DNA of 13,480 nt from Clostridia bacterium (GCA_030526225.1 JAUNDF010000051.1:2066-15545), one strand, 5' to 3'. Shown: positions 722 through 12,834, counted from the stretch's first letter. The notes: generated from the sequence alone by a model not told the origin. Numbers and translations: made by a program.

Positions 722-1812
722 GCGAGCGCATTGTGGTAGGCATGTCCGGCGGCGTGGATTCCTCGGTGACCGCGCTGCTCCTGAAGCAGCAGGGCTACGA
801 TGTGGTGGGCGTGTTTATGAAAAACTGGGAGGAGAAGGACGAAAACGGCACCTGCACCGCTGAAAGCGATTGGAGCGATGTGCGCGAGGTCTGCGACCTG
901 ATTGACATCCCCTACTACTCCGTCAACTTTGCCAAGGAATACTGGGACCGCGTTTTCTCCTATTTCCTGGATGAATACAAAAAGGGCCGCACCCCCAACC
1001 CGGATGTGCTGTGCAACCGGGAAATCAAGTTCCGGGCTTTCCTTGATTTTGCCATGCAGCTGGGGGCCTCCAAAATGGCCACCGGCCACTTTGTCCAGAC
1101 CGACGGCATGGGCCATCTCCTGCGCGGCGCAGACCCCAACAAGGACCAGAGCTACTTCCTGTACATGCTCAAAAAGCATCAGCTGGAAAAGGCAATGTTC
1201 CCCGTGGGGCATCTGACCAAGCAGCAGGTGCGGGAGATTGCGTAGAAAAACGGCCTGCCCGTCAGCAAAAAGAAGGATTCCACCGGCGTATGCTTTATCG
1301 GCGAGCGGAACTTCAAGCAGTTCCTGTCCGGGTTTATGCCTGCCCAAAAGGGCGATATGGTGGCCCCCGACGGCACGGTGGTGGGCACCCATGACGGCCT
1401 GATGTACTACACCCTCGGTCAGCGCCGTGGCCTTGGCATCGGCGGCTGCGGTGACGGCCGCAGCTGGTTTGTCATCGGCAAGGACCTGCTGCGCAACCGC
1501 CTGCTGGTAGCTCAGGGTGATGACCATCCCATGCTGTACTCCACCCTTGCGGTGGGCACCGATGTCACTTGGGTGGATGATGCGCCCATCACCGCGGGTC
1601 AATCCCTGACCTGCACCGCCCGCTACCGCTACCGCCAGCCCGACCAGCCCGTCACCGTCACCCTGCAGGAGGACGGCACCTTGAGCATCCGCTCCCTGGT
1701 GCCCCAGCGCGCCGTTACCCCCGGCCAAAGCTGCGTCCTCTACGCCGGCGACACCTGCCTCGGCGGCGCCATTGTGGATAAGGTGCTGGACGCAGGGGAA
1801 GTGGGGATTTAA
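718..1812 (+). CDS. mnmA: tRNA 2-thiouridine(34) synthase MnmA, one reading frame interrupted by a single in-frame TAG at 1243-1245
   Basis: Track ORFs 718-1245 and 1336-1812 are in the same frame. The PP-loop GMSGGVDSS and the first catalytic Cys motif [12 protein letters not shown] lie upstream of the TAG. The uncovered stretch 1246-1335 translates in frame as [30 protein letters not shown], the second catalytic Cys motif DSTG(I/V)CFIGER. The total of 364 codons matches the roughly 365-aa MnmA length. There is a GAGGAGG SD before the ATG and the stop is TAA. A table-11 annotator would call this a split gene or pseudogene. Confidence 0.9.
1243..1245 (+). other. In-frame amber (TAG) codon inside mnmA
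   Basis: The context is gag att gcg TAG aaa aac ggc, and the frame is conserved on both sides. By my recollection the aligned residue in E. coli (KIAEDLGL) and B. subtilis MnmA is Glu. Confidence 0.9.
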
Positions 1813-1824
1813 GGATGAATATCA

Positions 1825-1857
1825 GGACTGTGAATGGAATTGTTCACGGTCCTTTTT
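1825..1857 (+). terminator. Rho-independent terminator after mnmA
   Basis: A 10-bp stem pairs GGACTGTGAA (1825-1834) with TTCACGGTCC (1843-1852), with one G-U pair. The loop is 8 nt and the stem is followed by TTTTT (1853-1857). It sits 13 nt after the mnmA TAA. Confidence 0.6.
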
Positions 1858-1893
1858 GCATGCTGTTTTCTCCCCCCTCCCACCTTTCTTTTG

Positions 1894-10404: not shown

Positions 10405-11928
10405 ATGCGTTCATCCGTTAAGCTTTCCCATCGCCTGATTCTGCTGCTGTTTGCAGCGTTGTATCTGGTCATCTGTGCCGTATCACTGCCCATGTTTCTT
10501 AACAGTGGTCGGAAAATTGTTGTAATGCTCTTCGCTCTGCTTGGAGCGGCACTGATGGTGCTTTTTGGTTTTGTTAGGCTGCCGAAGCAAAAAAACAGCA
10601 CCGTGCTGATTCTGTGCGTTGCGTATTTCGCCATTTTATTAACAGCACAATTTTGCCTTTTCCAGCGCGGATTCTTTATCGGCAGTCAAGATGCCCGCGT
10701 TCTGTCTCTTCTTGCATATGACTACGCAGTATATCCGCCCGAATCCATCTCGCTTCCCTACTTCAGCCAGTACAGCAACAACGCCTTTCTCTTCGCGCTG
10801 CTGCTGATGCTGAACCGCGTGTTCCTTGCCATCAATCCCGCCCTGACCATGGAACAGTGCACGTTCTTCCTGTGCATGGTGCAGTGTGCCCTGGCCGCGG
10901 CGACGGGCATCCTGTCCTGTACAGTACTGACGCGGCAGCTGCGCCTGCGCCGGTATATCGCCGTGTTCTGCCTGCTGTACACGCTGTTCGTCAGCTTTTC
11001 CCCATGGATGATGATTCCCTACTCCGACGGCTTCAGCCTGCTGCTGCCGGTGGTGGCACTGTGCCTGTACCTGCTCTCCCGCAAGGCAGGAGTCAAGTGC
11101 AAGGCGACATCGTGGATGGCTATCGGGCTGCTGATGGGCCTGTCCATGCTCATCAAGCCCCAGGCGGCGGTGATGTGCATCGCCATCGTCATCATGGAGG
11201 CAATCGACCTGCTGCGTCCCTTCCGGTGGAAGCGGCTGCTGGCGCTGGTGCTGTGTATCGCCCTTACCGCCATCATGGTGATGGTTCCCCTGAAGCAGGC
11301 GGTGCTTTCCGCCAACCGGATTGAGCTGGATCCTGAGCAGGACTTCGGCTTCACCCATTATGTGATGCTGGGCATGAACCCGGAAACCAGCGGCCAGTTC
11401 AATCAGCGGCTGTACGAGCTGTCTGCCGGTGCGCCCACCAAGGCGGAGCGCAAGCAGGCCCAGCTGGCAGAAATCAACCGCTCCCTGACCCATTACGCGC
11501 AGAACCCCGCAGATATCTGGCGGGTCATGCGGGACAAGCTGCTGGTCACCTTCGGGGACGGCACATTGTGCTGGACCGGTGACTGGGTGGCCTACGAATG
11601 CAGCGAGCCGTCCCTGTCCCAGCGGTTCCTGCGGGTTTTCCGGGATGTGAAGGCACCCCGCTGGCCCATGGTATCCGCCACTGAAACGGCCCTGTGGCTG
11701 ACGGTGCTGCTGCTGGCGCTCCTTTGCCCATTGGCGGCATGGCAGCATCCGCCGCTGACGGTGCTGCCCCTGAGCCTGCTGGGGCTGGCACTCTTCGAGC
11801 TGCTGTTTGAGGCAGGCGGCCGGTACCTGTTCGGCTCCGTGCCCCTGTTCCTTTTATCCGCGGTGATGGCGCTGGACGCCCTTGCCGCCATCATCAAACG
11901 CAAACTCACCCCCACTGACAACCCTTGA
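10405..11928 (+). CDS. Putative GT-C-like (GT39/PMT_2-like) integral membrane glycosyltransferase
   Basis: This is a 507-aa polytopic protein. It carries a loop Asp (FIGSQDARVL), YFSQYSNNAFLFALL and LIKPQAAVMCIAIVIM motifs, and a soluble loop of about 100 aa before the last helices. The ATG directly abuts the upstream TAA, and a GGAGGA SD at 10395-10400 lies inside the upstream gene. Confidence 0.5.
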   Translation: MRSSVKLSHRLILLLFAALYLVICAVSLPMFLNSGRKIVVMLFALLGAALMVLFGFVRLPKQKNSTVLILCVAYFAILLTAQFCLFQRGFFIGSQDARVLSLLAYDYAVYPPESISLPYFSQYSNNAFLFALLLMLNRVFLAINPALTMEQCTFFLCMVQCALAAATGILSCTVLTRQLRLRRYIAVFCLLYTLFVSFSPWMMIPYSDGFSLLLPVVALCLYLLSRKAGVKCKATSWMAIGLLMGLSMLIKPQAAVMCIAIVIMEAIDLLRPFRWKRLLALVLCIALTAIMVMVPLKQAVLSANRIELDPEQDFGFTHYVMLGMNPETSGQFNQRLYELSAGAPTKAERKQAQLAEINRSLTHYAQNPADIWRVMRDKLLVTFGDGTLCWTGDWVAYECSEPSLSQRFLRVFRDVKAPRWPMVSATETALWLTVLLLALLCPLAAWQHPPLTVLPLSLLGLALFELLFEAGGRYLFGSVPLFLLSAVMALDALAAIIKRKLTPTDNP

Positions 11929-11955
11929 CAGGAGGTCACCCCTACGAGCGAAGTA

Positions 11956-12834
11956 TTGAAGCGCGGAACACTCATCCGCGGCATCGGCAGTTTTTACACC
12001 GTCGTCACCGAGGACGGCGAGGAATACACATTGCGGTGCAAGAAAAAGTTCCGCCGGATGAAAATGTCCCCGCTGGTGGGGGACGAGGTCACCTTTATCC
12101 CCGGCGAAGGCGAGGAGGACGGCTGGCTGGAGGAGATTCTCCCCCGCCGCAGTGAATGCATCCGTCCCCCGGCGGCCAACGTATCCCTGATGCTCATCGT
12201 GCTGTGCCCTGTGCCCGAGCCTGATATGCTGCTGGTGGACCGGCTGCTGGTCAGGGCCCGGAAGCAGAACATGCGCTGTGCGCTGGTGGTGAGCAAAACG
12301 GATCTGGACAGCACCATGGAGGGCCGCATCCGCGCGGAATATGCCCATGCGGATGTGGATGTCTACGCTGTGTGCAGCCAGACCGGAGAAGGTCTCGAAG
12401 AGCTTCGTCAGGCCATGCGGTGCGAATTGTGCTGCCTTGCCGGGCAGAGCGGCGTGGGCAAATCCACCATGCTCAATGCCCTGCTGGGGCTTTAGCTGGA
12501 AACCGGCGAAATCAGCCGGAAGATTCAGCGGGGCAAAAACACCACCCGCCGCGCCGAAATGATGCTGAAGGACGGCCTGCGTGTGCTGGATACCGCCGGC
12601 TTCAGCCTGCTGGAGCTGGAGAGCAACATGGAGCCCATCACCCTGAAGGATTACTATCCGGAGTTTGCCCCCTATGAGGGCGAATGCCGCTTTACGCCCT
12701 GCTACCACGACCGGGAGCCTGGCTGTGCCGTGACCTGTGCCTGTGAAGAGGGCGCCATTCCCCTGCCCCGGCTGGAGCGCTACCGCACACTGCTGGGCGA
12801 AGTAAAACAGACCTGGAGGGAACGTTATGATTAA
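11956..12834 (+). CDS. rsgA: Ribosome small-subunit-dependent GTPase A (RsgA/YjeQ/CpgA), one frame interrupted by a single in-frame TAG at 12493-12495
   Basis: Track ORFs 11956-12495 and 12559-12834 share a frame. The motif order is that of a circularly permuted GTPase. The OB-fold N-terminus (GSFYTV...VGDEVTF), G4 VVSKTDL and G1 GQSGVGKST come before the TAG. ETGEISRKIQRGKNTTRR (G2), LDTAGF (G3) and the zinc-finger CRFTPCYHDREPGCAV follow it in the same frame. The start is TTG. The 292 codons match the usual length. Confidence 0.9.
12493..12495 (+). other. In-frame amber (TAG) codon inside rsgA
   Basis: The context is ctg ggg ctt TAG ctg gaa acc. It sits in the variable linker between G1 and the TGEIS segment. 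Confidence 0.9.

Follow-up and report, generated by a model that had tools for sequence, protein, structure and literature searches.

In-frame TAG codons in four otherwise intact genes of a gut Clostridia genome: is UAG read as an amino acid?

Does the amber codon still end translation in every bacterium whose genes carry it? The question is raised by a 13,480 bp stretch of DNA of about 60% GC (hereafter the window) from the metagenome-assembled genome (MAG) of a Clostridia bacterium (GCA_030526225.1, JAUNDF010000051.1:2066–15545). The window has eleven tightly packed genes on the + strand. Three of them, mnmA, rsgA and a gene for a GT-C-fold membrane glycosyltransferase, are each interrupted by one in-frame TAG. 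An earlier reading of the window, made from its sequence alone, had proposed that the amber codon is reassigned or obligately suppressed here. The analysis described below supports this proposal in part. A fourth in-frame TAG, in priA, the variable Glu/Gln-type columns at which the TAGs lie and the absence of other lesions all speak for it, and two of its statistical arguments do not hold up. On balance, UAG is probably not an efficient terminator in this organism but a codon for an amino acid, probably Glu or Gln; the whole genome may have been reassigned, or suppression may be constitutive and strong. Translation through the TAGs, the residue inserted, the tRNA involved and the status of release factor 1 (RF1) are inferred from sequence.

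Interrupted genes of the window

Translation of the mnmA, GT-C and rsgA frames gives a single stop in each, always TAG, and zero further in-frame stops (Table 1). The encoded MnmA is covered along its whole frame by the Pfam family tRNA_Me_trans (E=2.9e-81) and its _M and _C domains. The tRNA_Me_trans HUP domain, residues 4–195, spans TAG codon 176, and the TAG is located immediately 5′ of the conserved catalytic MnmA motif. The closest homologues are 82% identical and uniformly full length (358–381 amino acids). In the GT-C protein, the Pfam PMT/PMT_2 match (residues 107–248) spans TAG codon 156, which falls within the conserved motif F-[VI]-[EQ]-H-S-A-Y-A-T-P-D; homologues of 26–39% identity align over residues ~20–540. 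The RsgA protein shows Pfam RsgA_N and RsgA_GTPase, the latter extending over residues 61–221 and spanning TAG codon 180, and the TAG is between the G1 motif (GQSGVGKS) and the G2/G3 motifs. The gene for RsgA is uninterrupted in 25 of 25 relatives from the Genome Taxonomy Database (GTDB), which have 50–74% identity.

Open reading frames (ORFs) called with translation table 11 resume only at positions 1336 (mnmA), 8050 (GT-C) and 12559 (rsgA). The possibility that these are split genes or genes with internal restarts was considered and rejected: the first restarts would skip the MnmA catalytic motif and would part the RsgA G1 motif from G2/G3. A share of three genes in eleven, each with a single stop and without a frameshift, greatly exceeds what is normal for pseudogenes.

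The sequence-only reading described these genes correctly. Its positions for one in-frame TAG in each of the three were reproduced by translation, and Pfam domains and homology cross all three TAGs, in keeping with its claim that frames and motifs continue beyond them. The segments after the TAGs are without a table-11 ORF, as the restart positions show. It had also seen no frameshift, second stop or decay, and none was found in ~6,750 codons over three contigs (see below), nor was there any sign of relaxed constraint.

Table 1. Features of the window, with positions counted from its first nucleotide
Feature	Position	Strand	Remarks
mnmA (tRNA 2-thiouridine(34) synthase)	718..1812	+	364 codons, intact but for one in-frame TAG
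In-frame TAG no. 1	1243..1245	+	codon 176 of mnmA, context GCG TAG AAA
GT-C-fold (PMT/PMT_2-like) membrane glycosyltransferase gene	7558..9189	+	543 codons, one in-frame TAG
In-frame TAG no. 2	8023..8025	+	codon 156 of GT-C gene, context GTA TAG CAC
rsgA (ribosome small-subunit GTPase A)	11956..12834	+	292 codons, one in-frame TAG
In-frame TAG no. 3	12493..12495	+	codon 180 of rsgA, context CTT TAG CTG
tmk (dTMP kinase)	47..721	+	TIGR00041, E=3.4e-52; TGA end overlaps mnmA start (ATGA)
Glycan/polysaccharide cluster, seven genes	1964..11928	+	DUF2142 membrane protein, GT2, GT4, flippase, GT-C, GT87-like, TIGR03766-like GT
rpe (ribulose-phosphate 3-epimerase)	12827..13480	+	TIGR01163, E=1.7e-70; TAA end; start overlaps rsgA end

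A fourth TAG on an unlinked contig

Further contigs of the genome were sought with PknB and Fmt of GTDB genome L003, apparently the nearest relative by RsgA, as queries, and the matches were screened by accession number. Two contigs were found. In the relatives' loci, in-frame stops were checked orthologue by orthologue, as tblastn scans with all ORFs were swamped by the antisense and shifted-frame ORFs that are typical of DNA of 60% GC. PknB (MDO4483385) and PP2C (MDO4483386) are on a 38,163-bp NCBI contig and are encoded on contig L028 of the Logan assembly of sequencing run SRR24915835, the run from which the window comes. Fmt (MDO4482940) and Def (MDO4482941) are on a 79,104-bp NCBI contig and are encoded on Logan contig L029 of the same run. 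The protein accession numbers climb as the contigs shrink (79 kb, 38 kb, 15.7 kb), which is the pattern of one length-sorted MAG.

In L029, priA has an in-frame TAG at positions 371–373, where the gene caller ended the gene. The frame continues past this TAG for 16 codons, PQEGVQVFFEYNPTNMM, and then meets a TAA. The last nine of these residues (FEYNPTNMM) match the C-terminal motif of PriA in relatives, and the TAA falls exactly at the PriA end of L003 (…YFEYNPTNMM) and of a second GTDB genome, L004 (…YFEYNPTTMM); both have Glu at the TAG position. The number of in-frame TAGs thereby rises to four, with the priA codon unlinked to the other three, and priA still uses its ancestral TAA terminator.

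No in-frame stop was found in contig L028, which contains the end of rlmN, the genes for PP2C and PknB, and the first part of an ATP-cone gene. Between pknB and the ATP-cone gene is a 350-nt non-coding stretch (L028 2849–3198) that shows, by eye, a hairpin and then a T-run directly 3′ of pknB; it also has a long leader, and no Rfam family matches it at gathering score.

The window and the two further contigs together give 19 genes with ~6,750 codons. Four TAGs interrupt their frames; neither TAA nor TGA does so, and frameshifts are absent. Their 18 true terminators consist of nine TAA and nine TGA, with no TAG. Two of the three sampled contigs of the MAG carry an in-frame TAG. The codon is present in several otherwise intact conserved genes at unlinked loci (four genes on two contigs), which is one of the features expected of a genome-wide reassignment.

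Source reads, assembly and origin

The window is part of a 15,683-bp NCBI contig with locus tags Q4C54_078xx and proteins MDO4484321–27. The Logan assembly of these reads is the product of another assembler, and its contigs L002 (mnmA), L030 (GT-C) and L001 (rsgA) are 100% identical to the window and reproduce all three TAGs. Since the same TAGs come from two assemblers, they are not an assembler slip.

One contig end deserves comment. Contig L030 corresponds to window positions 8015–9616 at 100% identity; it begins 8 nt 5′ of the GT-C TAG and contains the codon. A 153-amino-acid Logan product that ends at this TAG was called on a separate contig of 1,575 nt. A Logan contig junction, i.e. a branch of the de Bruijn graph, lies at position 8015, adjoining the TAG. 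As L030 holds the TAG and the TAG-terminated product sits on a second contig, the branch is most likely at ~8014 or ~8045 rather than at the TAG itself. The junction hints at a nearby polymorphism or a drop in coverage.

The public annotation of this MAG, by PGAP with table 11, holds fragments of the interrupted genes: a 152-amino-acid ‘hypothetical protein’, a 179-amino-acid ‘GTPase RsgA’ (MDO4484326) and a 91-amino-acid ‘hypothetical protein’ (records MDO4484323, MDO4484326 and MDO4484327). The MnmA fragment has no NCBI protein record from this MAG, and a 175-amino-acid fragment is found in Logan only.

A related MAG of the same project (GCA_030529995.1, run SRR24915815, locus L031), here called the sister MAG, has 14 of 14 genes intact: those for PriA, Def, Fmt, RsmB, RlmN, PP2C, PknB, RsgA and Rpe, and five further genes. 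That the sister MAG is clean makes a project-wide pipeline artefact unlikely.

All window proteins are singletons at 90% identity among ~15 billion proteins, and the nearest RsgA in 185,579 GTDB species genomes has 74% identity. The organism is placed in a new genus-level lineage of gut Christensenellales that is Aristaeellaceae-like. This placement follows from the source names of homologues (Aristaeellaceae, Christensenellaceae) and from the hosts of relatives (rumen, faeces).

Residues found at the TAG columns

If UAG is read as an amino acid, homologues should indicate which one. At the mnmA column, the best 120 homologues have E 67 times, A 31, Q 9, R 6 and K 5, and the thirteen closest all have E. 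At the GT-C column, E (28), Q (23) and T (11) predominate among 92 homologues. In the 25 relatives, the rsgA column has G 7, E 5, Q 3 and further residues. Those nearest to this genome show Q, E, E and Q: the codon is CAG (Q) in L003, L006 and L008, whereas L004 and L005 have GAA (E). The priA column has E in 6 and A in 4 of 14 homologues. All four columns are variable. Glu ranks first in three of them and second in the remaining one; Gln occurs in three.

Random one-step nonsense would have a Q or E precursor in only 37–44% of cases, as codons for K, Y and W are no less available, and the probability that all four TAGs would fall in E/Q-type columns is p ~0.02–0.04. In a mixture likelihood, ‘TAG = Glu’ is favoured ~260-fold over random one-step nonsense, and reassignment with the amino acid left free is favoured ~13-fold. 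Glu is favoured over Gln ~100-fold at the four columns; so small a number of sites does not settle the amino acid, and four columns are far below the number that Codetta requires. In comparison with the other possible precursor positions, the TAG sites rank high in variability, with percentiles of 0.11, 0.41, 0.05 and 0.26 (Fisher p = 0.06), which is expected if the proteins must still work.

Constraint, codon usage and terminators

Genes that have lost function should show relaxed constraint beyond the stop. The downstream-minus-upstream difference in identity is −0.097 for mnmA, against −0.069 (standard deviation (sd) 0.03) in normal homologue pairs; for rsgA it is 0.012 against 0.009 and for the GT-C gene −0.018 against −0.044. 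All three differences are within 1 sd of normal pairs, i.e. there is no relaxed constraint. Relative rates were compared with proper outgroups for RsgA, Rpe, PP2C, PknB, Def, Fmt, RsmB and the PriA C-terminus; MnmA was left out, as its best 120 matches have the window sequence as their outgroup. Unique changes number 177 in this lineage versus 172 in L003, and 180 versus 164 in L004. The mixed types of lesion that characterize pseudogenes, and several lesions in one gene, were not found in the 19 genes; nor was relaxed constraint seen in the three interrupted window genes, or an accelerated lineage in the eight proteins compared, results with which very recent mutations remain compatible.

The same comparisons bear on sequence error. 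The nonsense share of random substitutions is ~3%, so that four stops produced by error would be accompanied by over 100 errors in 21 kb, which corresponds to ~35 additional amino-acid changes in the genes compared. This lineage shows no such excess there, in a comparison of modest power (~1–1.7 sd). MnmA retains 221 of the 227 columns with at least 95% conservation in its best 120 homologues.

Codon usage in the window is strongly biased (CAG 122, GAG 116, AAG 129 and TAC 112 versus CAA 10, CGA 3 and GGA 20), and with this usage 56–62% of single-base nonsense substitutions yield TAG. The share depends on the mutational spectrum: it is only ~31% of stops for G:C>T:A damage or a mutator of the MutY type, and ~71% for a pure transition spectrum (C>T, G>A), under which the null hypothesis is most tenable.

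This affects two arguments of the sequence-only reading. It is correct that all interruptions are TAG; as an argument the observation is weak (p ~0.2 for three sites and ~0.1 for four). It is also correct that none of the eleven window genes ends in TAG, seven ending in TAA and four in TGA, and here too the count is not significant (p ~0.4), as TAG terminators are rare in relatives. They account for 28 of 369 likely genes (7.6%) and for 10 of 177 orthologue ends (5.6%) when priA, def, fmt, rsmB, PP2C, pknB, rsgA and rpe are counted in L003–L027; in the sister MAG there are none among 14. TAG is still a stop in these relatives and terminates rsgA in 4 of the 25. The scarcity of TAG terminators in the whole family is a plausible precondition for codon capture. 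The noteworthy point is the density of genes that have a single stop and no other lesion, rather than the TAG-only count or the terminator counts.

It should be pointed out that no local signal for recoding was seen. RNA structure in the 100 nt 3′ of each of the three window TAGs is no better than in shuffled sequences (z = 0.27, −1.58 and −0.78), and there are no Rfam matches. A cis-acting recoding element of the pyrrolysine or selenocysteine type was therefore rejected. In the absence of downstream structure, any read-through would be trans-acting and independent of context.

Trinucleotide counts of the window may be added here. TAG occurs only 13 times on the + strand, against 86 for CTA; within genes, 78 of 82 CTA begin at the third codon position (NNC TAN). 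The total of TAG and CTA is 99, and the shuffle expectation is 167.

Alternative explanations

Genuine nonsense mutations in a bacterium with the standard code, which would make the four genes young pseudogenes or genes for truncated proteins, as a result of gene decay or of a mutator or transition-biased spectrum, are the most serious alternative and one that is considered unlikely. The codon usage described above favours TAG among new stops, the one-step precursors CAG and GAG are abundant, and relatives use TAG as a stop. The loss might also be tolerated, as mnmA and rsgA are non-essential in model bacteria and priA would lose only its last 17 residues. MnmA, moreover, deviates at six conserved columns. 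What speaks against this explanation is that four of ~19 genes have exactly one lesion each, with no frameshift, deletion, TAA or TGA, that downstream regions are as conserved as upstream ones in a branch that is not accelerated, and that the TAGs fall at tolerant E/Q-type columns and not at random K, Y or W precursors. A G:C>T:A mutator would give too few TAGs, and the compact operons with overlapping start and stop codons are unlike a decaying genome. An artefact of sequencing, library or assembly, in which substitution errors of a damage type (C>T, G>T) became fixed in a low-coverage consensus, is given very little credence. The genome comes from a single run, the short Logan contigs (1.5–3.9 kb) suggest low coverage, the junction at 8015 adjoins the GT-C TAG, and both CAG>TAG (C>T) and GAG>TAG (G>T) are classic types of damage. 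Yet two assemblers agree over every overlap, the three window TAGs included, the graph branch is most likely not at the GT-C TAG, and there are no indels. The number of errors that would be needed is at odds with the lack of excess amino-acid change and with the conserved columns kept by MnmA, and the sister MAG of the same project is clean.

A different possibility grants that UAG is sense and makes it pyrrolysine (Pyl) throughout the genome, through pylT, pylS and pylBCD, as a bacterial counterpart of the archaeal UAG-to-Pyl code; it is held to be about as improbable as the artefact. Pyl systems occur in some Clostridia, and a bulky residue could be accommodated where the TAGs lie, as these positions are variable and probably surface-exposed. 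Against this, known Pyl-using bacteria retain UAG as the stop for most genes, and no pyl gene or methylamine methyltransferase gene was seen in the 21 kb of the window, L028 and L029. The columns do not fit well either: in three of the four Glu leads, ahead of Gln or Ala, Lys is at most rare in any of them, and the residues found agree with one-step synonymous drift from GAG or CAG. A feature shared with the archaeal code is that genome-wide UAG-to-Pyl decoding, as reported, leaves table-11 coding density unlowered, as in the present genome (Kivenson et al., 2025, cited in a 2026 preprint).

Decoding of UAG as a canonical amino acid also has points against it. ARAGORN finds no tRNA whatever in the 21 kb examined, and hence no tRNA-CUA was seen; there is no release factor gene in any locus examined. 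The evidence consists of only four sites from one sample and one MAG, and as the 90%-identity clusters are all singletons, no independent population is at hand. Given the share of TAG among random nonsense changes, ‘all TAG’ is only weakly informative, and 0 of 18 TAG terminators is not significant (p ~0.25–0.4). The genes mnmA and rsgA are dispensable in many bacteria, and the priA TAG removes only 17 residues, so that loss of function is conceivable. The six deviations of MnmA among 227 conserved columns (A18T, A89K, L207M, P211K, E268D, G287D) are at the upper end of the homologues' mutual range (0–6); they may be due to the outgroup position of the sequence. Finally, the prior probability is low, as no bacterium is known to read UAG in this manner.

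Proposed mechanism

If UAG is an amino acid codon here, a trans-acting decoder would read it wherever it is present, and no local RNA signal would be needed. The simplest decoder would be a tRNA that descends from tRNA-Glu or tRNA-Gln and has acquired the anticodon CUA; RF1 would probably be lost or weakened as well. The rare TAG terminators (~6–8% in the family) may have been cleared from gene ends, which would have eased codon capture. TAG could then have reappeared within genes at substitution-tolerant Glu/Gln positions by a single-base change from GAG or CAG. Variants of this scheme would be near-cognate tRNA read-through after RF1 loss, a phage-derived suppressor, or pyrrolysine.

A stronger form of this proposal, that the organism represents the first natural bacterial lineage in which UAG has been captured for a canonical amino acid (Glu/Gln) with RF1 lost or disabled, in a recent event at the genus level within gut Christensenellales/Aristaeellaceae, is put forward tentatively, and the chances are judged to be slightly against it.

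Gene content and layout of the window

Apart from the GT-C gene, every gene of the glycan cluster is intact and ends in TAA or TGA. The eleven genes are closely packed. Start and stop codons overlap as ATGA at tmk/mnmA (718–721) and at GT2/GT4 (4915–4918), and the overlap at rsgA/rpe is 8 nt (12827–12834). Ribosomes that translate rsgA can reach the rpe start only with read-through of the TAG at 12493; rpe also has a GGAGG ribosome-binding site of its own.

The rsgA-rpe synteny is kept in all relatives. In the 25 relatives and in the sister MAG (L031), the gene pair is located directly 3′ of a priA-def-fmt-rsmB-rlmN-PP2C-pknB operon. In the present genome, a 10-kb glycan-synthesis cluster is 5′ of rsgA; it is absent from the rsgA neighbourhood in 25 of 25 relatives. 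The pknB operon is on other contigs and is followed by the ATP-cone gene, which probably encodes a ribonucleotide reductase. The position of the glycan cluster ahead of rsgA is a lineage-specific rearrangement or insertion.

Relation to known code changes

All known bacterial stop codon reassignments involve UGA, and stop codon inferences that are based on few columns often stem from pseudogenes or contamination (Shulgina and Eddy, 2021). A 2026 preprint on translation-table prediction assigns codes 4, 11 and 25 to bacteria and has the archaeal UAG-to-Pyl code as the sole genome-wide UAG case. The statement in the sequence-only reading that no UAG sense reassignment is established in bacteria agrees with both sources. 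Established bacterial code changes all concern UGA, save for computationally inferred changes of Arg codons; known cases of UAG reassignment are confined to phages, eukaryotes and, in the form of Pyl, archaea. Searches of the literature gave neither a report of a code change in Christensenellales nor a publication on SRR24915835.

One of the closest parallels is found in the gut phages with code 15 (crAss-like, Lak and others), which read UAG as Gln with a phage suppressor tRNA-CUA. They share with the present case the codon, intact genes, low usage of the codon and the gut habitat, and also the proposed trans-acting mechanism, i.e. a suppressor tRNA with or without RF1 interference. In contrast, the TAGs and their surroundings here are in chromosomal housekeeping and envelope genes (tmk, mnmA, rsgA, rpe, priA), there are no phage genes, the sequence is absent from IMG/VR, and the amino acid may be Glu and not Gln. 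That the window itself is from a recoded code-15 phage was rejected: all genes are cellular, the rsgA-rpe synteny is chromosomal and there is no IMG/VR match.

The bacterial UGA codes, code 4 (Trp; Mycoplasmatales, insect symbionts, Eggerthellaceae) and code 25 (Gly; Gracilibacteria/Absconditabacteria), are alike in being lineage-wide bacterial changes from stop to sense. They are known from in-frame stops in conserved genes, and they go together with a tRNA for the codon and with the loss of the release factor that recognizes it. They differ in that UGA is read by RF2 and UAG by RF1, and the present genome, of ~60% GC, is not obviously reduced.

The archaeal UAG-to-Pyl code and the ambiguous UAG of Pyl-using methanogens resemble the present case in that UAG is sense in ordinary genes and table-11 coding density is barely affected (Kivenson et al., 2025, cited in the same preprint). 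The archaeal code needs pyl machinery, whereas here no pyl genes are found in 21 kb and the columns point to Glu/Gln.

Laboratory strains of Escherichia coli, namely supE, C321.deltaA and related RF1-deleted strains, show that a bacterium is viable with UAG as sense by means of a tRNA-CUA or near-cognate tRNAs. These strains were engineered or selected, whereas the present case concerns a natural lineage with TAG in native genes. The nuclear codes of ciliates and Blastocrithidia also turn the amber codon into Glu or Gln, there by mutated tRNAs. They are eukaryotic, with a single eRF1, and the evolutionary route and the machinery are not comparable.

Significance

UAG as a sense codon for Glu/Gln is as yet undocumented in any bacterium. 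If the reading favoured here is true, there is an annotation blind spot, since a 2026 preprint notes that UAG reassignment leaves coding density unlowered and so escapes current tools: coding density barely shifts, PGAP has split or truncated genes, and code-prediction tools would miss the genome. A natural solution at the level of tRNA and synthetase would be of interest to genetic-code engineering, and the finding would bear on how TAG-recoded gut phages interact with their hosts. For the organism itself, it would mean that RF1-dependent termination has been abandoned naturally in a GC-rich genome that is not reduced.

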